From contig CANQMO010000012.1 of the NCBI GenBank assembly GCA_947624985.1, forward strand, positions 19,549-83,548: a stretch of 64,000 bases of DNA, given 5' to 3'. Made by a program: the position numbers and the translations under genes. This document shows, piece by piece, positions 38,808 to 50,617 of the stretch (the stretch's first letter is position 1; each line of letters opens with the position of its first letter). Under the pieces are notes generated by a model. That model was not told the origin of the DNA. It did not search any database and saw only the letters and a list, made by a program, of their open reading frames with translations. The DNA is from an uncultured Oscillospiraceae bacterium (GTDB lineage: Bacteria; Bacillota; Clostridia; Oscillospirales; Oscillospiraceae).

Positions 38808-39218
38808 ATGAAACACGAATGCAGGATCACCGTTCTGGAAACGAAGTGTTTTCCCGAACTTCAGGAAAAGTTCTTGGCCGATCCGAAGTCCGGGCCGTGT
38901 CCCTTTTTCAAAGCCGGCGATACATTTTTGCTGAAACGCACGCCGCAGCAGGATGATTTCTATCACCTGATGAACGGGAAATTCTGCGGCGAGGCATGGG
39001 ATGCCGTGAGCCGGTATGTCTATACGGCCCTGCAAGGCGGATCGATCATGAAGGGCTGGACGAATGACGACCGGATGATGATCGCCTGCTGCAACGACGG
39101 CACGAGGCCCGTGGTATTCAAGATCGAACGGGTCGACATCCCGGAGAACGAGGAAGAACGCGCCTGGCTGGAAAAACAGGATTTCAGTAATTCCGCCGAG
39201 GATGCCTATACGGGCTGA
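38808..39218 (+). CDS. TIGR04076-family small Cys-rich protein
   Basis: GGAGG RBS. MKHECRITVLETKCFPELQEKFLADPKSGPCPFFKAGDTF...FCGEAWDAVSRYVY...MIACCNDGTRPVVFKIERV matches the remembered TIGR04076 pattern (..GPCP....GD.F.....FC..AW..I......CC.DG.RPVVFK.ER). Confidence 0.65.
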   Translation: MKHECRITVLETKCFPELQEKFLADPKSGPCPFFKAGDTFLLKRTPQQDDFYHLMNGKFCGEAWDAVSRYVYTALQGGSIMKGWTNDDRMMIACCNDGTRPVVFKIERVDIPENEEERAWLEKQDFSNSAEDAYTG

Positions 39219-39524: not shown

Positions 39525-40247
39525 TCACATCTGCTTCCGGTATTCCCTGGGCAGCATATGGAAAAACGTCTTGAATGCCGAGGTGAATTTGCTTTGGCTG
39601 TCATATCCCACTGCCTGGGCGATCTCAGCGATGGTCATATCACTTGTCCGCAGCAGTTTTGCAGCTTGCTCCATCCGGTGTTCCCGAATGTGCGCCGCAA
39701 GTGAGGTGCCGTAGACGGATTTGAATGCGGCCTTCAGGGTGGTGGGGTTGATGAGATATCGTTTGGAGAGTTCTTCGATGGTGATCCGCCGCTCAATATG
39801 CTGCAAAAGTTCGTCATGGACCCGCCGTGCGATCTCTAACGGATCCGACGGGTGCTCTTCCGGGTGTTCCGCCGGGCCATCTTGCTCGGGACAGGTGACC
39901 TCCATCACCTGCTCGATCATCTGGTGGAGAAGCTGGCTTTGGGGGGTGCTGGACGCCCGGTAGTAGACTTCCTTCCCATCCCGGCGGGAGACGATGAGAC
40001 CGCTGTTCCGGAGAGGACGCAGATGGTGGGATACGGCCGGGCTGGACATCTCCATCATGGCGGATATATTGACCACGCACTCCTCACAGTGGCACAGGAG
40101 CCAGAAGATGCGTACCCTGGTGGTGTCACCCAGCTGCCGGAACACCTCCGCCACGGTCTGAAAATGCTCCACGCGGCTCAGCTGCGCCTGTATCAGGGCG
40201 GTCTCTTCTCCCTCTCCGTGCTGGTGAGGCAGGTGGATATGGTCCAT
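39525..40247 (-). CDS. Fusion transcriptional regulator: ArsR/SmtB metalloregulator domain plus AraC-type HTH domain
   Basis: RBS AAGGAG precedes ATG 40247. The N-terminal half is FRQLGDTTRVRIFWLLCHCEECVVNISAMMEMSSPAVSHHLRPLRNSGLIVSRRDGKEVYY (HTH_5 with a Cys-rich alpha3 site). The C-terminal half is ITIEELSKRYLINPTTLKAAFK...IAEIAQAVGYDSQSKFTSAFK (HTH_18). A His-rich N-tail HIHLPHQHG is also present. Confidence 0.75.
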   Translation of the reverse strand: MDHIHLPHQHGEGEETALIQAQLSRVEHFQTVAEVFRQLGDTTRVRIFWLLCHCEECVVNISAMMEMSSPAVSHHLRPLRNSGLIVSRRDGKEVYYRASSTPQSQLLHQMIEQVMEVTCPEQDGPAEHPEEHPSDPLEIARRVHDELLQHIERRITIEELSKRYLINPTTLKAAFKSVYGTSLAAHIREHRMEQAAKLLRTSDMTIAEIAQAVGYDSQSKFTSAFKTFFHMLPREYRKQM

Positions 40248-40425
40248 GCAGTTCGCTCCTTCCTTCCGCATATTTCGCCAAAACAGAAATACCTTTCGCC
40301 CGTTTGGCAGAAGATGTTCCGACGGTCTTGACTTGCGGATTTATTAGCATTATACTGCGGCCATAACGATTAAGCAAGTACTTAAGTGTTGAATCAAAAC
40401 GATTATTAAGTAGGAGGAGTTTTCT

Positions 40426-40644
40426 GTGAAAAAGACGTACAAGATCGAAGTGGACTGCGCCAACTGTGCCAACCTGATGGAGGATGCCGCCCGCAAGACC
40501 GCCGGCGTACAGGCCGCCACCGTCAACTTCATGACCCAGAAAATGATCGTGGAGTTCAGCGAGGGCCAGGAGCCCAAGGCCGTCATGCAGGACGTCCTGA
40601 AGGCATGCAAAAAGGTCGAGCCGGACTGCGAGATATTTCTGTAA
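40426..40644 (+). CDS. Stand-alone heavy-metal-associated (HMA) domain protein
   Basis: GGAGGAG RBS and GTG start. KIEVDCANCANLMEDAARKTAGVQAATVNFMTQKMIVEF has the DCANCA metal-binding variant common at the N-terminus of clostridial CadA-type ATPases. Confidence 0.8.
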   Translation: MKKTYKIEVDCANCANLMEDAARKTAGVQAATVNFMTQKMIVEFSEGQEPKAVMQDVLKACKKVEPDCEIFL

Positions 40645-40741
40645 CACATCGGCCAGGACGGCAAAAGAGGGGGCCCCTTACCCTGCGTCCGGCAGAGTGA
40701 GAGGGCCCTCTTTTTGAATCTAGTATGACAAGGAGCAGATC

Positions 40742-42763
40742 GTGATGCAAGAGATCGTGATAGATATTTTGTTAGCGGTGGTGATCGTGACGGCGGCGGT
40801 GTTCCGGTTCATCATAGGCCCACGCCCGGACAGCGGCATGACCAGAAAGCAAAAGGTCATGCTGACCCGTATCCTGACTGCCTCCGTGATCTTACTGATC
40901 CTCCAGCTCATCCCGGCAGCGCTGTTCGCCCGGCTAGACGAGGCCCTGTTCCCGACGGCCGGACGCTGGCTGCGGTTCGCGTTCTATCTGGCGGACTATT
41001 TCATTATCGGCTATGACATCCTGCGGAAGGCCGTCAAGGGCATCCTGAACCGGCAGGTATTCGACGAGAACTTCCTCATGGCGGTGGCCACGGTGGGCGC
41101 TATGGCTTTGGCTATCTATGAAAACGGCGACTATCTGGAGGCCATTGCCGTGATGCTGTTTTACCAGATCGGCGAATGGTTCCAGAGCTATGCCGTGGGC
41201 AAAAGCCGCCGCAATATCAGCGATCTCATGGATATCCGGCCCGACTACGCCAATGTGGAGCGGGACGGCGCTCTGGAGCAGGTGGACCCGGACGAGGTGG
41301 AGATCGGGACCGTGATCGTGGTACAACCCGGCGAGAAGGTCCCCATCGACGGCGTCATCGTGGAGGGAAGCTCCAGCCTGAACACCAGCGCGCTCACCGG
41401 CGAGAGCCTGCCCCGGGAAGCTAAGACTGGAGACGAGATCATCAGCGGCTGCATCAATATGACGGGCCTGCTGAAGATCCGGACCACCAAGGAATTTGGC
41501 GAGTCCACCGTCTCCAAGATCCTGGACCTGGTGGAGAACGCCAGCTCCCGCAAATCCAAGTCCGAGGACTTCATCTCCAAGTTTGCCAAGATCTACACAC
41601 CCGCCGTCTGCTACAGCGCCCTGGCATTGGCGGTCCTGCCGCCGCTGGTGCGGATGCTGGCCATGGGCCTGTCGGCAGATTGGGGCACCTGGGTCTACCG
41701 GGCCCTGACCTTCCTGGTCATCAGCTGTCCCTGCGCGCTGGTCATCAGCATTCCCCTCAGTTTCTTCGCCGGTATCGGCGGGGCCAGTCAGGAGGGCGTT
41801 CTGGTAAAGGGCTCCAACTACCTGGAGATACTCTCCCAGACCAGGGTGGTGGTGTTCGACAAGACCGGCACTCTGACCCAAGGCGTCTTTGAGGTGAACG
41901 GTATCCATCACAGCGAGATGGAGAACGCGAAGCTCATCGAATACGCCGCTCTGGCGGAGAGCGCGTCCTCCCACCCCATCAGCAAGAGTCTCCAACGTGC
42001 CTACGGCAAAAAGCCGGACCGCACCCGCGTCAGCGATATCCAGGAGATCAGCGGCCGGGGCGTCATCGCCACGGTGGACGGCAGGTCGGTGGCCGCCGGC
42101 AACGACAAGCTGATGGAGCAGCTGCACATCTCCTATATCCCCTGCCACCACGCCGGTACCATTATCCATATGGCTATTGATGGCGCCTATGCCGGGCATA
42201 TCCTGATCTCCGACATCGTCAAGCCAAACTCTCAAAAGGCCATCGCCGCGCTGAAAAATGCCGGCGTGGAGCGGACCGTCATGCTGACCGGCGACGGAAA
42301 AAAGGTTGCCGAGCAGGTGGCCGGGTCGCTTCATATCGATACGGTCTACAGCGAGCTGCTGCCGGCGGACAAGGTGGCCAAGGTGGAGGAACTCCTGCGG
42401 CAAAAGTCCGGCAAGGCAAAGCTGGCCTTTGTGGGGGACGGCATCAATGACGCGCCCGTGCTGTCCAGAGCCGACATCGGCATCGCTATGGGCGCCATGG
42501 GGTCCGATGCCGCCATCGAGGCGGCGGACATCGTCCTGATGGACGACGACCCCATGAAGATCGCCAAGGCTATCAAGATCTCCCGGAAGTGCCTGGGCAT
42601 CGTGTATCAGAACATCGCCATGGCCCTGGGGGTCAAGGCCGCCTGCCTGATCCTGGGCGCGGTGGGCCTCGCCAATATGTATCTTGCCATCTTTGCCGAC
42701 ACGGGCGTGATGATCCTGGCGGTGCTCAACGCCATCCGTTGCCTCTTTGTAAAGAAGCTATGA
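40742..42763 (+). CDS. Heavy-metal-translocating P1B-type ATPase (Cd/Zn/Co-type; specificity not determinable)
   Basis: The CPC motif (VISCPCALVISIP), DKTGTLT, SSHPISKS, TGD and GDGINDAP are present. No N-terminal HMA domain is fused. The start is GTG 40742 or ATG 40745. Confidence 0.9.
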   Translation: MMQEIVIDILLAVVIVTAAVFRFIIGPRPDSGMTRKQKVMLTRILTASVILLILQLIPAALFARLDEALFPTAGRWLRFAFYLADYFIIGYDILRKAVKGILNRQVFDENFLMAVATVGAMALAIYENGDYLEAIAVMLFYQIGEWFQSYAVGKSRRNISDLMDIRPDYANVERDGALEQVDPDEVEIGTVIVVQPGEKVPIDGVIVEGSSSLNTSALTGESLPREAKTGDEIISGCINMTGLLKIRTTKEFGESTVSKILDLVENASSRKSKSEDFISKFAKIYTPAVCYSALALAVLPPLVRMLAMGLSADWGTWVYRALTFLVISCPCALVISIPLSFFAGIGGASQEGVLVKGSNYLEILSQTRVVVFDKTGTLTQGVFEVNGIHHSEMENAKLIEYAALAESASSHPISKSLQRAYGKKPDRTRVSDIQEISGRGVIATVDGRSVAAGNDKLMEQLHISYIPCHHAGTIIHMAIDGAYAGHILISDIVKPNSQKAIAALKNAGVERTVMLTGDGKKVAEQVAGSLHIDTVYSELLPADKVAKVEELLRQKSGKAKLAFVGDGINDAPVLSRADIGIAMGAMGSDAAIEAADIVLMDDDPMKIAKAIKISRKCLGIVYQNIAMALGVKAACLILGAVGLANMYLAIFADTGVMILAVLNAIRCLFVKKL

Positions 42764-42820
42764 TGACAGAGACTGAAAAGTGGGAACGGACCTTCTTGCT
42801 TGAACAAACTCTATAGCACT

Positions 42821-42855
42821 CAGCGGATGGCGCAAGGCCACCCGCTGTTGTTTTT
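42821..42855 (+). terminator. Intrinsic terminator of the ATPase gene
   Basis: CAGCGGATGGC-GCAAG-GCCACCCGCTG forms a 10-bp stem with one mismatch, followed by TTGTTTTT. Confidence 0.65.
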
Positions 42856-42942
42856 CACAGCGGCAGACACCACAGGGGGATGGTGACGCACCCTTCAATA
42901 TCGCGGGCCGGGCGCACATCCGCTTGCCCGCGAGCGGCCCCG

Positions 42943-43488
42943 TCAGATCATGTCGGCCAGCGCCGCCGCTTTTTTGCAGCCGTCAGTTTTATTAATATCC
43001 CCGACGTTCAGCACGCCGGGGACCAGGACTTCTCCCATCATCTTCCACTTGTTCAGAGCGCACATACGCTCCATGGGGATGCGGACGCCGTCCATGACCG
43101 TCATATCATCTTCCTCACAGCAGCAGATCAGCGCGCATTCCTTGCCGGAGATATCCTTGCCGCCCACCACCAGAGAGTAGATCCGGTCAATGACGCCCTT
43201 GATCTGCGCCGGGATGGAATACCAGTAGACGGGCGTGGTGAATACGATGACGTCAGCTTCCAGAATGGCCGGCGCGACGGTGTTGAAGTCGTCGTCAAAG
43301 GTACAGGCCTTCCCGGTGGAATAGCAGGTCTCACAGGCGTGGCAGCCGCCCACATTTTTGAACGCCGCGTCGAAACGTGTGACCGTATGCCCTTTCGCCT
43401 CCGCCGCCTTTATGAAAGCGTCGGTCATGGCGAAGCTGTTGCCGTTTTTGCGGGGACTGCCGGTGATAACAACGATCTTTTTACTCAT
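42943..43488 (-). CDS. Flavodoxin-like fold NAD(P)H-dependent FMN reductase / iron-sulfur flavoprotein-like protein
   Basis: GGAGGTG RBS. MSKKIVVITGSPRKNGNSFAM..., GGCHACETC and VFTTPVYWYSIPAQIKGVIDR are present. GC content is visibly lower. Confidence 0.8.
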   Translation of the reverse strand: MSKKIVVITGSPRKNGNSFAMTDAFIKAAEAKGHTVTRFDAAFKNVGGCHACETCYSTGKACTFDDDFNTVAPAILEADVIVFTTPVYWYSIPAQIKGVIDRIYSLVVGGKDISGKECALICCCEEDDMTVMDGVRIPMERMCALNKWKMMGEVLVPGVLNVGDINKTDGCKKAAALADMI

Positions 43489-43615
43489 AATGAACACCTC
43501 CATATGTTTGCGGGATTGACTTTTATCATGTCCCGCACTATAACTATACTGTGAATGGAACAGAAAACAAGTACGCACATTCAGGTTCAATACTTACCAG
43601 AAGGAAAGTGAAAAG

Positions 43616-43981
43616 ATGAACATCGAGTGTATTCAGGATGCAAGATTAGAGGACACCGGCTTTCATTACACGATGTCTCTGATACAGGGGAAATACAAGA
43701 TGTTTATCCTCTATGCGCTGGCATGGTTCGGGGTCGTGCGTTTCAACGAGATGAAAAAGTTCATCGGCAGTATTTCCTATAAGACGCTCAGCTCTACCCT
43801 GAAGGAACTGGAAGCTGATGGATTGGTCCACCGGGAGGAATATCCGCAGATACCGCCGAAGGTGGAGTACAGTCTGACCGAACGGGGAAGATCGTTGATG
43901 CCGATCCTGGACCAGATGTGTACCTGGGGAGAAGAACATAGGCATACTTATGCCGCCTGTGACGGAGGTGCGCAGAGTTGA
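43616..43981 (+). CDS. HxlR-family winged-helix transcriptional regulator
   Basis: ...LIQGKYKMFILYALAWFGVVRFNEMKKFIGSISYKTLSSTLKELEADGLVHREEYPQIPPKVEYSLTERGRSLMPIL is the canonical HxlR domain. It is divergent from the flavodoxin gene. Confidence 0.85.
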   Translation: MNIECIQDARLEDTGFHYTMSLIQGKYKMFILYALAWFGVVRFNEMKKFIGSISYKTLSSTLKELEADGLVHREEYPQIPPKVEYSLTERGRSLMPILDQMCTWGEEHRHTYAACDGGAQS

Positions 43982-44118
43982 GAAAAAAGACCGTCCTGCG
44001 CCTGGTCCTGGCGGCGGCGGGCGTCACCGCTCTGGTCCTGGGGCTCGTGCAGGGGCAATACGGCGAGACGCTGTCAAAGGCGGTATATCTCTGTCTGGAG
44101 TGTGTGGGTCTTGGATAG
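43978..44118 (+). CDS. CXXC-motif membrane microprotein (46 aa), CD1871A-like
   Basis: GGAGGTG sits 7 nt before TTG 43978, which overlaps the hxlR stop. LRKKTVLRLVLAAAGVTALVLGLVQGQYGETLSKAVYLCLECVGLG* has one TM helix and a C-terminal CLEC. It is not in the ORF track (<60 aa). The pattern recalls the RefSeq CD1871A-family CXXC motif-containing protein (from memory). Confidence 0.6.
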   Translation: MRKKTVLRLVLAAAGVTALVLGLVQGQYGETLSKAVYLCLECVGLG

Positions 44119-44944
44119 GGGTTTGAAGCGAAAATGCATCCAGCTGGCCAGCGCGGTGCTCTATAACGCCAACTTCGCCGGGTTCCGGGACGGCGCCATC
44201 TGGCAGGGCGAGGGCAAGGGTGTGTGCGTGCCGGGCCTGAACTGCTATTCCTGCCCCGGCGCGGTGGGCAGCTGCCCTTTGGGAGCGCTGCAAAATGCCC
44301 TGAGTCGCCTGCCAGAAAAGCTGCCGCTCTATGTAGGCGGCTTTATCCTGCTGACAGGCCTGGCCCTGGGACGGCTGGTGTGCGGTTTTCTGTGTCCCTT
44401 CGGGCTTATCCAGGAGCTGGTGCACAAGCTCCCCGGTCCGAAGATACAAAAAAGCCGGTGGACCCGGCGGCTGAGCTGGCTGAAATATATCGTTCTGGCT
44501 CTGTTCGTTGTGGCCATTCCCATGTGCGCCGCCTGGGCCCGGGGCTATCCTCTGCCAGCCTTCTGCAAGTACATATGTCCCGCGGGGACGCTGGAAGGCG
44601 GCTGGCCCCTGGCGCTGCTCCGGGCGGACATCCGGGGGAGGCTGGGCGGCCTGTTTTGCTGGAAGAGCGCACTGTGTGTCGCGATACTGCTCTCGTGTGT
44701 GTTCTGCTACCGGTCCTTCTGCCGGTTTTTGTGTCCCCTGGGGGCCATCTATTCCCTGTTCGCACGGGTCGCCCTGCTGGCCATGCGGGTGGACAAGACT
44801 CTGTGCGACAACTGCGGCCTGTGCGTAAAGAAATGCCCGGTGGATGTGTGCCGGGTGGGGGACAGGGAGTGCGTACAGTGCGGCGCCTGCCGGGCGGTTT
44901 GCCCGAAAAACGCCATCTATTTCGGAAAGGAGCGACGGACATGA
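44102..44944 (+). CDS. Membrane-bound 4Fe-4S polyferredoxin (NapH/MauN-like)
   Basis: CVPGLNCYSCPGAVGSCPLGALQ, CGFLCPFG, FCRFLCPLG and two ferredoxin clusters (CDNCGLCVKKCP, CVQCGACRAVCP) with TM helices. The start overlaps the microprotein gene (GTG 44102 or TTG 44111). Confidence 0.8.
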   Translation: MWVLDRGLKRKCIQLASAVLYNANFAGFRDGAIWQGEGKGVCVPGLNCYSCPGAVGSCPLGALQNALSRLPEKLPLYVGGFILLTGLALGRLVCGFLCPFGLIQELVHKLPGPKIQKSRWTRRLSWLKYIVLALFVVAIPMCAAWARGYPLPAFCKYICPAGTLEGGWPLALLRADIRGRLGGLFCWKSALCVAILLSCVFCYRSFCRFLCPLGAIYSLFARVALLAMRVDKTLCDNCGLCVKKCPVDVCRVGDRECVQCGACRAVCPKNAIYFGKERRT

Positions 44945-45483
44945 AAAGACTTTTCGCCCTGCTGCTGGCAGTATGTATGTGCCTTGGCATCGCTGCCTGC
45001 GGCAGCGATGCCGAAAAATCGGAGGTCACCGACTACGACCCCACGGCCGTGACGCCGGAGCCCGAGCTGCGGTACACGGACTTCACCGGGGCCCTTCTGG
45101 GCGGCGGGGAGCTGACATTGTCCGACTACGAGGGGAAGGTCATATTGCTGAACTTCTGGGCCACCTGGTGCGGCCCCTGCGTGAACGAGATGCCCGCGTT
45201 CCCGCGCCTTCTGGAGAAGTATGGGGACGATCTGGCCATCATCGCGGTGGATCTGCAGGAGGACAGTGAGACAGTGGCGGATTTCATCGCGGAAAAGGGC
45301 TATGATTTCCCCGTGGTGCTGGACGCCGACGGCGCCATCGGCAGCCTCTATCCCACGGACGGCATCCCCTATACGGTCGTCATCGCCCCGGACGGGACCA
45401 TCTCGGACACGTCTCTGGGGGCGGGCACGGCGGAGGTCATGATAGAGGAGTACAGCGCCATGATCGACGCGGCGCTGGGATAA
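44941..45483 (+). CDS. TlpA-family thiol:disulfide oxidoreductase lipoprotein (thioredoxin fold)
   Basis: ATGA overlap with the previous stop. Lipobox LLLAVCMCLGIAACGS and redox motif NFWATWCGPCVNEMP are present. Confidence 0.85.
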   Translation: MKRLFALLLAVCMCLGIAACGSDAEKSEVTDYDPTAVTPEPELRYTDFTGALLGGGELTLSDYEGKVILLNFWATWCGPCVNEMPAFPRLLEKYGDDLAIIAVDLQEDSETVADFIAEKGYDFPVVLDADGAIGSLYPTDGIPYTVVIAPDGTISDTSLGAGTAEVMIEEYSAMIDAALG

Positions 45484-45543
45484 GGCTGTGTCTCTCCGGC
45501 TGGATGCATTTGCGGTCCAAAACGCTATAAAATCCACAAATAC

Positions 45544-45576
45544 TACACGGCTGGCTCGATATGGGCCAGCCGTGTA
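45544..45576. terminator. Hairpin between convergent operons
   Basis: ACACGGCTGGC-N9-GCCAGCCGTGT is a perfect 11-bp stem with no strong T-tract. Confidence 0.5.
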
Positions 45577-45598
45577 ACAGTATAAGTTGAGAATGGAT

Positions 45599-46528
45599 TT
45601 ACAGCGTTTCCGTTACGCGCTTTTTGCGCCTGCCGGTGTTGTCGGAGCCCCGTATCTCCTCATGGTAGAAATAGTCCACGATGACGGGGTGACCCTGTGG
45701 GACCCGCCCATATGGCATTTCATTGTCTACGAAGGGGCAGTCGTATCTCTCCGCCATTTCCTCTGCTTTCTTCTCCAGCATTTGAAAATAGCTGCGGTCA
45801 TGCCTGTTATATATTTCGTCGTACAGCGGCACAAGCTCCGGACGCTTTTCCGCGATATAGTCCATGATGGTCTTTTTGAACCCGCCCCGCAGATTCAGGT
45901 TCTCCAGCCAGAACAGGTCGCACTGATCCTTGACCTGCTCAAATATCGCCTCAAAGTCTGTGATCCCCGGAAAGACGGGGGACACGAAGCAGACGGTACG
46001 TATACCGGCGTCGTAGACCTGCTTCATGGCGGCGATACGACGCTCGATGCTGACGGCGCTGTCCATGTCGTCCTTGAAGCTCTCGTCCAGCGTGTTGACC
46101 GACCAGGACACCGTCACCTGTCCCAGATCCTTCAAAAGGTCGATGTCCCGGAGGACCAGATCGGATTTCGTGCAGATCAGGATGTCCGCGCCGCTGCCCC
46201 GAAGCTGTTCAAGGAGTCTACGGGTGGCCCCGAATATCTCCTCCTGGGGGTTGTAGCCGTCGGTCACCGAGCCGATCACCACCCGCTGCCCGGCGTACTT
46301 TTTCGGGTTTTTGATCTCCGGCCAGTGCTTCACATCCAGGAACGTCCCCCATTCCTCCGTGTGGCCGGTGAAGCGCTTCATAAACGAGGCGTAGCAGTAC
46401 CTGCACCCGTGGGTGCAGCCCACGTAGGGATTGACGGAGTATCCGCCCACCGGGAGGCTGGACTTCGTCATAATGTTTTTCGTATCCACATCGGCGATGA
46501 GAATACCGTTATCCGTCATTTGCGCCAT
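45599..46528 (-). CDS. Radical SAM enzyme, SplB/COG1533-like (candidate radical SAM mobile pair protein B)
   Basis: GGAGGAG sits 8 nt before ATG 46528. ...SVNPYVGCTHGCRYCYASFMKRF carries CX3CX2C. The protein is 309 aa, and its start overlaps the stop of the upstream rSAM gene by 13 nt. The long N-terminal extension in the track is Gly/Pro/Arg noise. Confidence 0.75.
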   Translation of the reverse strand: MAQMTDNGILIADVDTKNIMTKSSLPVGGYSVNPYVGCTHGCRYCYASFMKRFTGHTEEWGTFLDVKHWPEIKNPKKYAGQRVVIGSVTDGYNPQEEIFGATRRLLEQLRGSGADILICTKSDLVLRDIDLLKDLGQVTVSWSVNTLDESFKDDMDSAVSIERRIAAMKQVYDAGIRTVCFVSPVFPGITDFEAIFEQVKDQCDLFWLENLNLRGGFKKTIMDYIAEKRPELVPLYDEIYNRHDRSYFQMLEKKAEEMAERYDCPFVDNEMPYGRVPQGHPVIVDYFYHEEIRGSDNTGRRKKRVTETL

Positions 46529-47214
46529 TTTCTCTGCTCCTCCAAAACCTTGTTGTAAGCGTCGGGCAGTTCCTGCACGGGAGCATTCTCGCCCATGATG
46601 GGGGCCAGGTCCTCCTTCCAAAACACCGGGATATGAAGCGCGTGGGCCAGCTCCGTCAGGGAATACACCCATTCCGGCGCTGTTCGGACTTTCCGGCTCA
46701 TTGGGCCGGTCATGGTGCCGATGACCACCCAGTCTATGCCTCTGAGATCCACTTGGCCGGGATCGTCGAACAGCGGCTCGAAGGTCACATGATAATGCCT
46801 GGCCCGCACATTTTCCCGGAGCGCGTCGATCCGCCAGAGCTCCGACCTTCTTGTGACCGTCACGCCGAACCAGGCGTTTTCCAGGTCCGTGTCGATGTCC
46901 AGCAGGTCCGGCCGCTTGGAAAGAAACAGAAACTGGTGCTGGGGATTTTCCGCCATCTTGGCGAATACCTGTTCCCGCCACGCCGGGTCCCATCCAGCCA
47001 GGTCGCTCATGCCGGTCAGGAGAAAATTCTGCGGTTTTTCCTTCTCCATCAGCCGCAGCTTACCCGGAAAGAACTCCGGCCTGGAAAAATCGTCGATCAT
47101 ATGGTATCGCTTGACGTTGTTCCGGGCATAGCAGTAGGGACAGCCGACCGTGCAGCCGATCACCAGATTCATATTCTGTATCTGGTCCTTGATACAGACG
47201 TACATATTATCCAT
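46516..47214 (-). CDS. Radical SAM enzyme, DUF5131/phage gp37-like (candidate radical SAM mobile pair protein A)
   Basis: MDNMYVCIKDQIQNMNLVIGCTVGCPYCYARNN carries CX3CX2C. The protein is about 232 aa. ATG 47214 overlaps the last codons of the Rrf2 gene (alternative ATG 47205). Confidence 0.7.
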   Translation of the reverse strand: MDNMYVCIKDQIQNMNLVIGCTVGCPYCYARNNVKRYHMIDDFSRPEFFPGKLRLMEKEKPQNFLLTGMSDLAGWDPAWREQVFAKMAENPQHQFLFLSKRPDLLDIDTDLENAWFGVTVTRRSELWRIDALRENVRARHYHVTFEPLFDDPGQVDLRGIDWVVIGTMTGPMSRKVRTAPEWVYSLTELAHALHIPVFWKEDLAPIMGENAPVQELPDAYNKVLEEQRKWRK

Positions 47215-47800
47215 GGCAGGAATGGCCGCCGCAGGTGTGCCCGCCGCAGCCGTGGGCGCCTGTGCCGTGCTCGTGGTCATGGTGGTCGCAGTGTACGTTC
47301 GCATCATAGCCCAGCGTGCCGGCCAGCAGCGCGGCCACGGCCTCGTCCGCGGCGCCCTGGACGCCGCCGTAAAGCCGGATGCCTGCCTTTTGGCGGTAGG
47401 TGTCGATGATGTCCTGCAAAGTGATGGCGCTCATACGGTCCTCCGCAGCCCTCTGTATCTCGTCGTAATAGTCCCGCAGGGCCAGCTGGATGTTCACGCC
47501 CACGCCGCAGTCGGGATTGGTGTGGGTATCCTGGTGCAGGATGGGCTTGTTCCCCTCGATGGCCCGGTAAACGTCCAGCAGGGAGATGTCACCGGGCTCT
47601 CTGGCAAGGGCGGGGCGGGGGTGGCCCTTCACGCTGGCCAAAAGCCCGGCCTTTCGCAGAGCGCTCATCAGCTGCCGGATATAGGCGGGGTTGGTCTGCA
47701 CGCTCTCGGCGATCCGCTCGCTGGTGAGGGCCGCGCCCGGGTGGAGGGCGAGAAAGGCCAGCACATGCACCGCGTCGCTGAGCTTGGTGGAGTATTTCAA
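47207..47800 (-). CDS. Rrf2-family transcriptional regulator with His/Cys-rich C-terminal tail
   Basis: (L/M)KYSTKLSDAVHVLAFLALHPGAALTSERIAESVQTNPAYIRQLMSALRKAGLL is an Rrf2 winged helix. The tail HCDHHDHEHGTGAHGCGGHTCGGHSCHG has 9 His and 4 Cys in 28 residues. The start is TTG 47800 or GTG 47809, after GGAGAGAAAGGG. Confidence 0.8.
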   Translation of the reverse strand: MKYSTKLSDAVHVLAFLALHPGAALTSERIAESVQTNPAYIRQLMSALRKAGLLASVKGHPRPALAREPGDISLLDVYRAIEGNKPILHQDTHTNPDCGVGVNIQLALRDYYDEIQRAAEDRMSAITLQDIIDTYRQKAGIRLYGGVQGAADEAVAALLAGTLGYDANVHCDHHDHEHGTGAHGCGGHTCGGHSCHG

Positions 47801-47833
47801 AGCCGTCACCCTTTCTCTCCGGATGTTATTTTT

Positions 47834-47862
47834 ATTATAACAGCATATTGACAGAAACACAA
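47834..47862 (-). promoter_or_regulatory. Promoter of the Rrf2/rSAM operon
   Basis: Minus strand reads TTGTGT (47862-47857), a 17-nt spacer, then TATAAT (47839-47834). Confidence 0.6.
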
Positions 47863-47876
47863 GGCCGTGCTATGCT
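47848..47876 (+). promoter_or_regulatory. Promoter of the Sir2-Sir2-HD operon
   Basis: TTGACA (47848-47853), a 17-nt spacer, then TATGCT (47871-47876). Its -35 box and spacer overlap the -35 box and spacer of the divergent promoter. Confidence 0.6.
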
Positions 47877-47877
47877 T

Positions 47878-47904
47878 TTGCTGTAAAATAAAAAATAACA
47901 GCAA
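47878..47904. promoter_or_regulatory. Inverted repeat TTGCTGT-N13-ACAGCAA (candidate Rrf2 operator or 5'-leader hairpin)
   Basis: 7-bp arms flank an all-A/T 13-nt centre. It lies between the -10 box and ATG 47905 and ends 1 nt before the ATG. Confidence 0.4.
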
Positions 47905-48891
47905 ATGAAAGGCGCGATCGCTGTGAGCTACTATGATAATATGGTCATGCAGGCGCAGATGAAGTATTCCATGTATTACGACACCTACGCCGCCGGGCGC
48001 ACCCCCTACCGGCTTTCCACCCGGCCGCCGCTGCCCTACGAGGAGCAGATCGGGCGGCTGGTGGAGGAGATCGCCGCAGCGGACTGCGTGCTGGTGGGCG
48101 GGGGCTCCGGCCTGTCCGCCGCCGGGGGCGGGGATTTCTATTACGAGGACAACGAGTCCTATCGGAAGTATTTTGGGAAGTATGCCCAGAAGTATCACTT
48201 TAAGGGCGCCTTCGCCGGCATGATGCATCCCTGGGCCAGCCGGGAGGAGTTCTGGGGGTATCTTGCTACGTTCCTGCACACTACCCAGACCGCTCCCGTC
48301 CGCAGGCCCTATCTGGATCTGGATACGCTTCTGCGGGGCAAGGACTTCTTCGTCCTCACCACCAACCAGGACACCCAGTTCGTCAAGCTCTATCCGGAGG
48401 ACAAGGTGGCGGAGATCCAGGGCGACCACCGCTTCTTCCAGTGCGCGGCCTGCTGTACGGACGACACATGGGACGCGGTGGAGCCGGTGCGGCAGATGGT
48501 CGCCGCCATGGGAGAGAGCACCGCCGTGCCCCGGGGCATGGTGCCCCGCTGTCCCCACTGCGGCGGCGAGGCGTTCCCCTGGGTGCGGGGTTACGGCAAT
48601 TTCCTGCAGGGGAAGAAGTATGACGAGCAATATGAAAAGGTCTCCCGGTATATCCTGGCCCACAAGGAGGATCGCATCCTGTTCCTGGAGCTGGGCGTGG
48701 GCCGCCTCACGCCCATGTTCATCCAGGAGCCCTTCTGGAACCTGACGCTGGCGTTCCCCAGGGCCCGGTATATCGCCGTCAACGACAAGTATAACTATCT
48801 GCCGGCGCAGATCGAGGACAAGGGCATGGTGATCGTGGCCGACATCGCCGACGTGCTGCGTGACGCGGTGGCGGCAAAAGGGAAGGAGTGA
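47905..48891 (+). CDS. Sir2-family (sirtuin-like, NAD-dependent) protein, paralogue 1
   Basis: Rossmann motif CVLVGGGSGLSAAGG, TTNQDTQF, EIQGDHRFFQC (His present) and a Zn ribbon CAACC...CPHCGG. There is no SD before ATG 47905, so the exact start is uncertain. Confidence 0.7.
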   Translation: MKGAIAVSYYDNMVMQAQMKYSMYYDTYAAGRTPYRLSTRPPLPYEEQIGRLVEEIAAADCVLVGGGSGLSAAGGGDFYYEDNESYRKYFGKYAQKYHFKGAFAGMMHPWASREEFWGYLATFLHTTQTAPVRRPYLDLDTLLRGKDFFVLTTNQDTQFVKLYPEDKVAEIQGDHRFFQCAACCTDDTWDAVEPVRQMVAAMGESTAVPRGMVPRCPHCGGEAFPWVRGYGNFLQGKKYDEQYEKVSRYILAHKEDRILFLELGVGRLTPMFIQEPFWNLTLAFPRARYIAVNDKYNYLPAQIEDKGMVIVADIADVLRDAVAAKGKE

Positions 48892-48896
48892 GCGTT

Positions 48897-49727
48897 ATGG
48901 ACCTGGCGCCTGTTGCGGGGAAGATAAGGCAGGCGGACGCCATCCTGATCGGGGCCAGCAACGGCCTGTCCATCACGGAGGGGCTGCACCTGTTTGCGGA
49001 CAACGGGGCGTTTGAATACCTGTTCGGGGACTTCAGGCAAAAATACGGCCTGCGGTGCATCCTGCAGGGAGCCGGGGCCCGCTGGCCCTCCGAGGAGGAG
49101 AAATGGGCCTTCTGGAGCCGCCTCATCCACCACTACTGCGGGCAGTATGAACCCACCCAGGTCATGGAGGACCTGAAGGCCATCGTGGGCGGGAAGGATT
49201 ATTTCATCGTGACCTCCAACGGGGAGGGACATTTTGAGATGAGCGGCTTTGCCCCGGAGAAGATATATGAGATCGAGGGGAACTGGCTGACCATGCAGTG
49301 CGCTGCCGCCTGTCACGACACGCTCTATCCCACCCTGGAGCTGGCGGAAACGCTGGCGGCGTCAGAGCGGGACGGCAGGGTCCCCACAGAGCTGGTGCCC
49401 CGCTGTCCCCGCTGCGGCGGACCCATGCGCGTGCACATGGTGGGGGAGAACTACATCCCGGACGATGCCGCACGGGAGAGGTTTGAGGCGTTCCTTGAAG
49501 AATACCACGGAAAGAAGCTGGTGGTGCTGGAGCTGGGGATCGGCTGGCGCAATCAGCTTATCAAGGCGCCGCTCATGGAACTGGCGGCCCGGGAGCCGGA
49601 GGCGGTCTACGTGACCGTCAACCTGGGCGAGGTCTATATCGCCGAGGACATCCGGGAGAAGTCCTTTGGCCTGGACGGGCCGCTGAGCGATGTGCTGTCG
49701 GCCCTGCGAGAGGCATGCGGAGCATGA
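48897..49727 (+). CDS. Sir2-family protein, paralogue 2 (catalytic-His position is Trp)
   Basis: GGGAAGGAG RBS overlaps the previous stop. AILIGASNGLSITEG, VTSNGEGHF, EIEGNWLTMQC (W where paralogue 1 has H) and a Zn ribbon CAAAC...CPRCGG are present. Confidence 0.65.
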   Translation: MDLAPVAGKIRQADAILIGASNGLSITEGLHLFADNGAFEYLFGDFRQKYGLRCILQGAGARWPSEEEKWAFWSRLIHHYCGQYEPTQVMEDLKAIVGGKDYFIVTSNGEGHFEMSGFAPEKIYEIEGNWLTMQCAAACHDTLYPTLELAETLAASERDGRVPTELVPRCPRCGGPMRVHMVGENYIPDDAARERFEAFLEEYHGKKLVVLELGIGWRNQLIKAPLMELAAREPEAVYVTVNLGEVYIAEDIREKSFGLDGPLSDVLSALREACGA

Positions 49728-50263
49728 ACCTGCCGGAAACTGTCCGCAGGGACTATGAGAAGTGGTGCGCCTTCCTGGGGGAACAGGTGACATTTTCCCT
49801 GAAAAACACAGAAAAGCACACGAAGGACCACTGTGCCCGGGTGCTGCTGTACGCGCTGCTGATCGCGGAGAAGATGGACCTGCCCCGAAGCGAGCGGGAG
49901 GTGCTGTGCGCCGCGGCGGTGTTCCACGACTCCCGCCGGCAGGACGACTGGCTGGATGTGGGCCACGGCCGCCGGGCGGCGGACTATTACCGGGACTTTT
50001 GCCGGACGGGCGGGCTTGCCTGTGACGAGCGGGTATATCAGATCATGGCCTGGCACGACCGGCCCGGCGCCGAAGGCGAGGCGGCCATGGGCGAACTGGA
50101 AAACGGCGTGCTGCTCTACCGCATATTCAAGGACGCGGACGGTCTGGACCGGTATCGGCTGGGTCCCAACGCCCTGGATGTGGACCGGTTGAGAACGGCG
50201 GAGGCACGCAGCCTGACCGGCCTTGCCCGGCAGCTCGTGCGGGAGGGTCCAAAATCGAACTGA
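49724..50263 (+). CDS. HD-domain metal-dependent phosphohydrolase
   Basis: ATGA overlap with the previous stop. H..(HCARV)...VFHDSRR...GHG...WHD...FKDADGLDRYRLG carries H-HD-H-D type residues. Confidence 0.7.
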   Translation: MNLPETVRRDYEKWCAFLGEQVTFSLKNTEKHTKDHCARVLLYALLIAEKMDLPRSEREVLCAAAVFHDSRRQDDWLDVGHGRRAADYYRDFCRTGGLACDERVYQIMAWHDRPGAEGEAAMGELENGVLLYRIFKDADGLDRYRLGPNALDVDRLRTAEARSLTGLARQLVREGPKSN

Positions 50264-50338: not shown

Positions 50339-50617
50339 AAGAAACTAAAGATGCGGTACACGCAGCACCGAGGTCTGGCCCGGGTGACGAACTGGGTGAG
50401 GCTGAAGTTTGCTGCGATGAATCTGAAAAAGCTGGCGGTATGGAGTAGGGGAAAGCCCTGCTTTTCCCATATCTTCTGGTTATTTCATGCCTTTATGCAA
50501 AAACGGGCCGTTTTTCGCTCCCTGAAAACGGCTCGTTCTTTGACAGTCTGGCCTCCGGCTTCGCCGGAGGTCTTGACTGGAGGCGAGGACATGGCGCACG
50601 AAATACCCTCGCCATAA
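50339..50617 (+). pseudogene. 3' remnant of an IS1182/IS5-type DDE transposase gene
   Basis: ...MRYTQHRGLARVTNWVRLKFAAMNLKKLAVWS... matches the conserved C-terminal block (GMRYT..RGL.KV......L...A.NLKK.A.W) of these transposases as remembered. The frame opens only at 50339 (stop at 50336-50338), so the whole catalytic body is missing. Confidence 0.5.

Follow-up and report, generated by a model that had tools for sequence, protein, structure and literature searches.

What chemistry is encoded by two radical S-adenosylmethionine (SAM) enzymes that stand behind a regulator with a histidine- and cysteine-rich end, and does that unusual end disclose it? The question is raised by three tightly packed minus-strand genes at positions 45599-47809 of a 64,000-nt stretch of DNA from an uncultured Oscillospiraceae bacterium (hereafter the window, to whose positions all coordinates refer). 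The genes encode an Rrf2 protein, a DUF5131 radical SAM protein (A) and a radical SAM protein resembling spore photoproduct lyase (SPL; B). An earlier note, made from the sequence alone, had described the regulator as metal-tailed and had matched the enzymes to the radical SAM mobile pair A/B families. The cassette of this pair is present here in a variant headed by Rrf2, and the regulator is a deletion chimera that joins an Rrf2 domain to the C-terminal helix and His/Cys tail of a separate ancestral NifB/NifX-type gene.

Identity and layout of the cassette

Proteins A and B were identified using NCBIfam and Pfam models. A score of 408.8 bits was obtained for A with TIGR04471 (equivalog cut-off 355; profile positions 1-220 of 220) and 98.5 bits with PF07505, the Pfam model of DUF5131 (cut-off 28.9). 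For B, TIGR04470 gave 592.4 bits (equivalog cut-off 410; profile positions 1-285 of 285), and the Radical_SAM Pfam family was matched as well. A and B are the named NCBIfam radical SAM mobile pair proteins, and the identity given in the earlier note is borne out by scores above the curated cut-offs for both models. The cluster motifs that had been read from the sequence, CTVGCPYC in the DUF5131 protein and CTHGCRYC in the SPL-like protein, are both present.

The CX3CX2C motif for a [4Fe-4S] cluster is invariant in the alignments of both proteins, the models of both contain a partial TIM-barrel fold, and both keep a C-x-Y-C-Y motif. No invariant cysteine was found outside the cluster motif in the broad alignment of B. 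The hydrogen donor of the G. thermodenitrificans SPL is Cys140, of which no counterpart was located in B, though no residue-by-residue superposition was made. The two tyrosines flanking the third cluster cysteine take part in radical transfer in SPL, and the names of the SPL entries in the PDB record Y98F and C140A mutants.

Searches of PDB sequences with A and B as single sequences returned nothing meaningful. AlphaFold models computed on diverse alignments have pLDDT values of 92.9 for B and 85.8 for A. The solved structures nearest to B are those of SPL (4FHF and 4FHC), with E = 5e-8, a TM score of 0.56 over 244 aligned columns and 16% identity, and SPL ranks above SuiB, lipoyl synthase and all other radical SAM structures. 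The top structure matches of A are also SPL and are weak (E = 4e-3, TM 0.4); DUF5131 has no solved relative, and the sole matches of A in a BFVD fold search were two viral proteins, unnamed or uncharacterised. A and B are homologous to each other over the N-terminal 145 columns (hhalign probability 92%, E = 5e-7). DUF5131 and SPL lie in the same megacluster 5 at RadicalSAM.org (PMC9477430). Both proteins thus fall in the SPL/DUF5131 branch of the superfamily, the kinship that the earlier note had proposed. The candidate assignment of B as a bona fide SPL was rejected, since the SPL model TIGR04070 gives 16.1 bits against a cut-off of 400 and the profile-to-PDB match (E ~0.03) covers the cluster motif only.

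Purifying selection on A and B is strong, with dN/dS of 0.06-0.10 at saturated dS, and they are therefore real genes and not chance open reading frames (ORFs). About one third of the positions in A and B are at least 97% conserved across phyla. Both proteins are acidic (isoelectric point (pI) 5.4-6.1). A literature search on the radical SAM mobile pair, DUF5131 and PF07505/Gp37Gp68 returned no functional study and no published chemistry for the pair, as the earlier note had held; the only mention of the pair that was found is one sentence in a preprint on the pMMCAT plasmid.

The features of the operon are presented in Table 1. Genes A and B overlap by 13 nt, and a GGAGGAG ribosome-binding site lies 8 nt ahead of the B start codon (ATG 46528). 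The same order with the same overlap occurs in E. eligens and Selenomonas. All three genes had been described as overlapping within one operon. The operon and the A/B overlap stand; the Rrf2 stop codon (TAA 47207-47209) is separated by 1 nt from the A start that is conserved in the family (ATG 47205; TAAtATG), and an 8-nt overlap arises only if the non-conserved ATG 47214 is taken as the start of A, whose 5' boundary is accordingly 47205 or 47214. Public gene calls start the regulator at GTG 47809 (200 aa), and the start homologous to that of its relatives is TTG 47800 (MKYSTKL...).

Table 1. Features of the cassette and of its flanks in the window
Feature	Position	Strand	Basis or remark
Chimeric regulator gene: Rrf2 domain (to ~47379) and last 57 aa of a NifB/NifX-family protein	47207..47809	-	Pfam Rrf2, 117 bits
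Deletion junction AAGGCAGGCAT	47379..47389	-	microhomology; 257 bp missing relative to L005
28-residue His/Cys tail HCDHHDHEHGTGAHGCGGHTCGGHSCHG	47210..47293	-	exactly 9 His and 4 Cys
Radical SAM mobile pair protein A, DUF5131, motif CTVGCPYCY	46516..47205	-	TIGR04471, PF07505
Radical SAM mobile pair protein B, SPL-like fold, motif CTHGCRYCY	45599..46528	-	TIGR04470
Terminator-like GC-rich hairpin 3' of the B stop codon, with the convergent ResA/TlpA-like gene on its other side	45545..45575	-	fold of 45530-45605
Operator-like 22-nt motif, copy 1, contains TGTTAT-N7-ATAACA	47824..47845	.	overlaps minus-strand extended -10
Operator-like 22-nt AT-rich motif, copy 2	47879..47900	.	just downstream of plus-strand promoter-like site
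SirTM-SirTM-HD divergent operon	47905..50263	+	travels with the Rrf2-headed cassette

The promoter/terminator scan returned no terminator-like site within the operon. The hairpin 3' of B has a folding energy of -30.5 kcal/mol (z = -5.5). The two copies of the 22-nt motif lie in inverted orientation within the 95 bp that separate the Rrf2 gene from the divergent gene at 47905, and they are 82% complementary to each other (inverted repeat I1). Copy 1 overlaps the extended -10 element of the Rrf2 operon (TGtTATAAT, 47834-47842, minus strand), where the -10/-35 elements were read directly from the sequence. A promoter-like site found by the promoter scan (TTGACA-17-TATGCT, 47848-47876, plus strand) faces the SirTM operon, and copy 2 lies just beyond it. 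Both copies are kept in L005 and L008, the closest relatives of the locus, and in the 76%-identical locus L014. The two copies are a candidate shared operator for both divergent operons. The regulator, A and B are driven by a single promoter with this AT-rich operator-like repeat; translation of A and B is coupled, and the hairpin marks the end of the operon.

The regulator is a deletion chimera

The Rrf2 domain of the regulator was identified with the Pfam model PF02082 (117.1 bits, gathering threshold 30); the Rrf2 superfamily model TIGR00738 gives 68.8 bits, just under its cut-off of 73.3. A single cysteine (NPDCGVG) is present, conserved but alone in 10 of 10 distinct sequences. The three-cysteine cluster site of the IscR/NsrR/RirA type is absent from the domain, and the IscR, NsrR and RirA models score far under their cut-offs. 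The 28-residue tail with 9 His and 4 Cys was described correctly in the earlier note.

The origin of the tail was established by comparison with L005 and L008, which are two cassette copies in one rabbit-gut Oscillospiraceae metagenome-assembled genome (MAG). There the gene order is Rrf2, a separate 134-aa NifB/NifX-family gene that carries the tail, A and B. The Rrf2 protein of these loci ends in ...DTYRQEAGMDSDTEV, and the C-terminus of the 134-aa NifX-like protein is ...LAEAGIRLYGGVQ...HCDHHDHEHGTGAHNCGGHGCGGHSCHE. In L005, two copies of an 11-nt microhomology, GAGGCnGGCAT, bracket 257 bp that are missing from the window. This microhomology (AAGGCAGGCAT) is common to the end of the L005 Rrf2 gene (GAGGCTGGCAT) and the interior of the L005 NifX-like gene (GAGGCGGGCAT), and the k-mer diagonal between the window and L005 jumps from -8 to +249 at the junction. 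The deletion removes the first 77 residues of the NifX-like protein and leaves its last 57 in frame behind Rrf2. The intact NifX-like protein of L005 matches PF02579 (Nitro_FeMo-Co) with 69.6 bits; the chimera in the window has no Pfam match to this domain, which is no longer intact. The NifX-like protein also resembles the C-terminal domain of the Fe-S carrier MrpORP.

Two other accounts of the fusion were rejected. An assembly artefact would not produce the identical 200-aa chimera on three independent European Nucleotide Archive (ENA) contigs and one NCBI contig, nor diverged chimeras with the same junction and a retained tail (P0128, P0129 and P0131). The fusion is heritable, being present in several assemblies and in diverged versions. 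The fused form is also not the ancestral one from which the NifX gene was derived, since the tailed NifX-like protein is a large independent family with a context of its own. The tail is the standard conserved C-terminus of NifB/NifX-type proteins of about 133 aa, of which at least 7885 family matches were found; it recurs in P0444, P0447, P0455, P0484 and others. Genes for these proteins normally lie directly behind a gene for a DUF134 DNA-binding protein, in a two-gene operon with overlapping genes, an arrangement that suggests a pair of a regulator and a metal- or cluster-binding protein. As a separate observation, the tailed proteins (P0444-P0536; L168-L172), with tails of the form HCDHHDHEHG...CG.HGCG.H.CH, make up a very large family in Clostridia.

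The chimera is a minority allele. Most members of the same 90% Rrf2 cluster have 147-152 aa and no tail, and in P0003 the NifX gene is entirely gone and Rrf2 is fused straight to A, again with no tail. The DNA identity to L005 is 94.8% on the side of Rrf2 and SirTM and 87.6% over the tail, A and B. Because this step falls exactly at the junction, the region is suggested to be a recombination seam whose two operon halves have different histories, consistent with cassette exchange at this point.

Odd products around A were also noted in metagenome assemblies (P0001, P0002, P0003, P0111 and P0117): two A proteins with internal tandem duplications, and Rrf2-A, MarR-A and DUF2800-A fusions. The segment 5' of A appears to be prone to rearrangement or to mis-assembly.

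These results bear directly on the proposal that the tail turns Rrf2 into a metal- or thiol-responsive sensor and that metal stress switches the operon on. The tail does exist and has many metal ligands, the diverged alleles that keep it show that the fusion is at least tolerated, and the pairing of the native tailed protein with a DNA-binding protein (DUF134, or Rrf2 in L005) hints at a partnership of regulator and cofactor. Against this, the tail arrived by a deletion that took away the first 77 residues of its donor, the tail-less form is usual in the cluster, the Rrf2 domain itself has one cysteine and no cluster site, and the usual regulator of the cassette is a MarR protein. A metal- or thiol-sensing role for the tail is considered quite unlikely. 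The tail is a deletion scar, and its reading as a purpose-built sensor is not supported.

The neighbouring metal and redox genes had been taken as a further clue to metal or thiol stress. Compared with L008, the block at 42771-45541 is an insertion; its genes encode an FMN reductase, an HxlR/RrpA-like regulator, a NapH-like membrane 4Fe-4S protein and a ResA/TlpA-like lipoprotein. Beyond it, 39525-42763 encodes a copper-type P-type ATPase (CopA), an HMA chaperone (CopZ) and a regulator that fuses an ArsR-type helix-turn-helix (HTH) to an AraC-type HTH; this block is conserved next to the cassette in L008 only. In L005 the TIGR04076 gene (38808-39218 in the window) directly adjoins B, which amounts to a gain of about 6.3 kb in the window. 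Being a lineage-specific insertion and not a set of conserved neighbours, the metal and redox genes are uninformative about the pair. The organometal chemistry that had also been suggested has no support, as the cassette was not seen to be accompanied by ars, mer or any other organometal genes.

Distribution, partners and companion genes

At least 580 relatives of B were found in a scan of one genome per species (185,579 species genomes), and the best 80 of them are 83-93% identical. The hosts of these 80 are Oscillospiraceae, Lachnospiraceae, Ruminococcus, Faecalibacterium, Erysipelotrichaceae, Selenomonas and MAGs assigned to Atopobiaceae and Anaerolineaceae, some of the MAG assignments resting on short contigs. 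The 90% identity cluster of B has 23,795 members. A Bacteroidales version (69% identical) is carried on the widespread pMMCAT plasmids, and the pair is located on the 30-kb mobilisable Selenomonas plasmid pSRC6, where it adjoins a CAT gene. On plasmids the pair lies near relaxase genes, and 52 IMG/VR contigs carry B. The sporadic, mobile-element-linked distribution described in the earlier note is thus seen in plasmids, prophages and several phyla, and close relatives have different flanks. A recent, antibiotic-era spread is not supported: dS is saturated between hosts of different G+C content, and the G+C content of the cassette matches that of the window. Several genomes hold two cassette copies or a second, 53%-identical B gene (L005/L008 in the same MAG, L070/L073 on the same contig 23 kb apart, and L016).

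Architectures were counted in 115 loci with a near-complete B. Gene A is present upstream of B in 100 of them. At least 10 loci, with four or more architectures among them (MarR-B, Rrf2-cupin-B, B-Macro-SirTM and B alone), have B but no A, while A was never seen without B where the sequence continued beyond A. B is therefore the core enzyme, and A is probably auxiliary.

The dedicated MarR protein of TIGR04472 (289.5 bits, cut-off 240) is found in 68 of the 115 loci and is the canonical regulator. An Rrf2 protein of any kind is found in 22-23 loci (counted with two queries), AraC is found on pMMCAT and HxlR in C. estertheticum, and the regulator types are interchangeable. No MarR homologue was detected by tblastn in the whole window, where the Rrf2 protein takes the MarR position. 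In about 13 loci a second type of Rrf2 (36% identical) is followed by a small cupin, and the cassette forms a prophage moron that is flanked by the genes for the tail chaperone and the tape measure protein. A common thiol-redox signal for all regulator types was considered and is weakened by the lack of a conserved cysteine in MarR.

The optional partners comprise the cupin, in 23 loci and in three different positions, with a conserved HxH..E metal motif; a flavin-reductase-like gene upstream (18 loci); a metallo-beta-lactamase (MBL)-fold hydrolase that overlaps A in Bacteroidales (9 loci); and a CGGC-domain gene between A and B (5 loci). The CGGC-domain protein (PF08821, 110 aa) is inserted in L031, L032, L046, L064 and L075, where the A/B overlap is broken and both genes are intact.

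These partners suit a rival explanation, in which A and B act in sequence on a diffusible toxin of gut and rumen anaerobes. Plant toxins, microbial antibiotics and reactive electrophiles are examples of such compounds; the reaction would be completed or supported by the cupin, the MBL hydrolase and the flavin reductase, and MarR, AraC or Rrf2 would sense the compound. A regulator of ligand-binding type is always attached, the MarR protein lacks a conserved cysteine, the partners include a cupin with its conserved metal motif and two further enzymes, both members of the pair are acidic, the pSRC6 copy stands beside a CAT gene, and the authors of the pMMCAT study propose 'resistance to toxic molecules'. 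On the other side, most cassettes have no accessory enzyme, no transporter or pump is consistently linked in the neighbour census, and small molecules are not known to be substrates of any enzyme in megacluster 5. A sweep in the recent, antibiotic era is also hard to reconcile with saturated dS and very low dN, and four unrelated families of regulators would need the same ligand. Detoxification or resistance of this kind is a possible, still tentative explanation and a close rival of the one favoured below; that estimate holds for the explanation together with its details.

The neighbour census covered 131 sampled ORFs with 144 Pfam families, none of which occurs in more than 4 members. It contains a few integrases and resolvases and no defence-island signature, and no recurrent family supports the metal and redox genes as a clue. 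The cassette is self-sufficient, because no conserved neighbours were found beyond it. A link to TtcA and tRNA was rejected as lineage-specific, being confined to 3 loci.

Carriage by phages raises the possibility of a phage-bacterium conflict module, in which the pair would modify nucleic acid or nucleotides and thereby block infecting phages or shield the DNA of the mobile element itself from host defences (anti-restriction). A and B match the phage protein families phrog_2045 and phrog_13321, A matches the PADLOC candidate-defence models PDC-M41B and PDC-M30B (E = 1e-27), and the IMG/VR contigs, the moron position, the relaxase genes near plasmid copies and the NAD-linked SirTM, macro and HD genes that are sometimes adjacent would all fit. 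The PADLOC matches are, however, generic DUF5131 matches to candidates that are themselves untested, and no validated system is matched; B is only weakly similar (E ~1e-4) to the same generic models. Most copies are chromosomal MarR-A-B units with a repressor of stress type, the census lacks a defence-island signature, and the extreme conservation of A and B is atypical of fast-evolving defence genes. A conflict role is judged unlikely.

In the window the cassette is accompanied by a divergent operon. It encodes two paralogous sirtuins of the SirTM class (47905-48891 and 48888-49727) and an HD-domain protein (49715-50263, HD Pfam match). The first sirtuin matches PDB entry 5A3A at E = 1.6e-39. 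The two paralogues are about 30% identical to each other, and the second has altered motifs in the catalytic region (TSNGEGHF and EIEGNW). No convincing match to a PADLOC model was obtained for the SirTM paralogues or the HD protein. In L005 and L008 the SirTM-SirTM-HD block is found in synteny, at 94-95% identity; the block conserved with these two loci extends from 45537 to 50241, where synteny stops. An ORF at 50351-50617, considered as the C-terminal remnant of an insertion sequence transposase, has no Pfam match.

The check for Sir2 in the neighbourhood, suggested in the earlier note, was positive: a sirtuin of the SirTM class lies within about 8 kb in 10 of the 115 loci. Five of those ten have the order B-macrodomain-SirTM. 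In these five (L010, L014, L034, L035 and L045), B runs up to or into a gene for a macrodomain protein-ADP-ribose hydrolase (NF003163, 341 bits), the B stop codon being at about +920 from the B start, and the SirTM gene comes next; gene A is absent from L034, L035 and L045.

Such loci could indicate protein-directed chemistry tied to ADP-ribosylation, in which B, with or without A, would modify or repair a protein alongside SirTM, an ADP-ribosyltransferase, and a macrodomain eraser as part of an oxidative-stress response. The overlap of B with the macro gene speaks for it, as do the operator-like repeat common to the SirTM-SirTM-HD and Rrf2 operons in the lineage of the window and the macro, NUDIX and Tpt1 genes near the E. 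eligens cassette. The SirTM loci belong mostly to related rabbit-gut MAGs and may reflect one or two evolutionary events, such genes are missing from most cassettes, and no lipoyl-carrier or LplA2 partner was seen. This explanation is very unlikely.

Proposed function and comparison with known systems

The favoured, speculative reading is a stress-induced, SPL-style direct reversal of covalent damage to nucleic acids or nucleotides, which is put forward as a possibility of low confidence. Nucleic-acid repair is favoured because of the fold of B, the position of the pair in the superfamily, the SOS links of sister families and the carriage by phages. Relatives of the COG1533 SplB-like type are regulated by SOS/LexA in several phyla (PMC8565304, PMC3765255).

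Each enzyme would bind one [4Fe-4S] cluster via CX3CX2C and cleave SAM to a 5'-deoxyadenosyl radical. The SPL-like B would be the core catalyst, and A, its distant paralogue, a second radical enzyme in an auxiliary role. Until a chemical or redox stress signal is received, the operon would be kept off by its repressor (MarR in most cassettes, Rrf2 here). Clusters and electrons could be supplied by the optional NifX-like, CGGC and flavin-reductase-like genes, and a by-product could be processed by the optional cupin and MBL hydrolase. On the repair reading, the substrate would not depend on the host and would most likely be DNA, RNA or nucleotides that carry damage, whose reversal would require no O2. 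A host-independent substrate would explain how the cassette can work unchanged across phyla, plasmids and prophages.

Several points weigh against repair. The literature search found no experiment on any member of the family, and B is far from true SPL by the scores given above. The regulators are of MarR, Rrf2, AraC and HxlR types and not LexA, and the lack of a conserved cysteine in MarR suggests ligand sensing. The optional cupin, MBL hydrolase and flavin reductase have the appearance of enzymes for small molecules, the acidity of A and B is unusual for DNA-binding enzymes, and the putative operator was assigned from conservation alone.

A broader proposal regards the mobile pair as a self-contained, anaerobe-specific protection determinant with new radical chemistry, long exchanged among gut and rumen bacteria, plasmids and prophages, with B as catalyst and A as second radical enzyme. 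In one version, C-C cross-linked nucleic-acid lesions formed under low oxygen (for example 5',8-cyclopurines or intrastrand base-base cross-links) would be reversed independently of O2; in the other, a toxic small molecule would be destroyed by radical chemistry. Taken as a whole, with both versions included, this proposal is doubtful.

Few uncharacterised radical SAM cassettes are as abundant in gut and rumen metagenomes as the A/B pair, and DUF5131 as a whole and the COG1533 proteins other than SPL are likewise functionally blank. The window alone does not reveal the chemistry of the pair. The family had already been named; here it occurs in a variant architecture, with Rrf2 in place of MarR, a NifX-tail fusion and a SirTM companion operon. 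The window adds a correction rather than a discovery, and it cautions against inferring function from unusual termini. Experimental handles are provided by the division into a B core and an auxiliary A, by the interchangeable regulators, by the optional partners (cupin, MBL hydrolase, flavin reductase, NifX-like, CGGC and macro-SirTM) and by carriers that are in culture: Faecalibacterium prausnitzii ATCC 27768, Lachnospira eligens ATCC 27750, Ruminococcus flavefaciens 007c and Bacteroides with pMMCAT.

Among known systems, the NifB/NifX small proteins (PF02579) correspond to the end of the regulator, whose tail and preceding 29 residues are their C-terminus. The chimera differs in that only these last residues of about 134 are left and in that the family is normally free-standing behind DUF134. 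The Rrf2 domain is closest to the cluster-less, redox-type regulators HypR and CymR: HypR is the best specific NCBIfam match of both Rrf2 types linked to the pair (46.8 and 63 bits), and both types have a single conserved cysteine and no three-cysteine cluster site. Their scores lie far below the equivalog cut-off of 180.

For B, SPL (SplB) offers the nearest fold, the C-x-Y-C-Y motif and the same megacluster. The resemblance is at the level of the fold only, the hosts of the mobile pair include the non-sporulating Bacteroidales, Selenomonas and Fibrobacter, and its regulation is not linked to sporulation. After its own family, the nearest named relatives of B are the PA0069 family (NF033668, 128 bits) and the Rv2578c family (NF038135, 104 bits), whose cut-offs of 360 and 430 are far above these scores. 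Both are families of uncharacterised radical SAM proteins tied in the literature to DNA damage responses; they are LexA-controlled, stand-alone and vertically inherited, whereas A and B travel together in a mobile cassette that brings a repressor of its own. Protein A is a member of DUF5131 (phage Gp37-Gp68, PF07505), a phage-associated, uncharacterised family, within which it forms a distinct, very conserved subfamily found only upstream of B.

The closest system remains the radical SAM mobile pair itself. The window matches it in full-length, above-cut-off A and B proteins, in the A-then-B order with its overlap and in the sporadic, mobile distribution. It differs in that the TIGR04472 MarR is replaced by the Rrf2-NifX-tail chimera and in that a divergent SirTM-SirTM-HD operon has been added.

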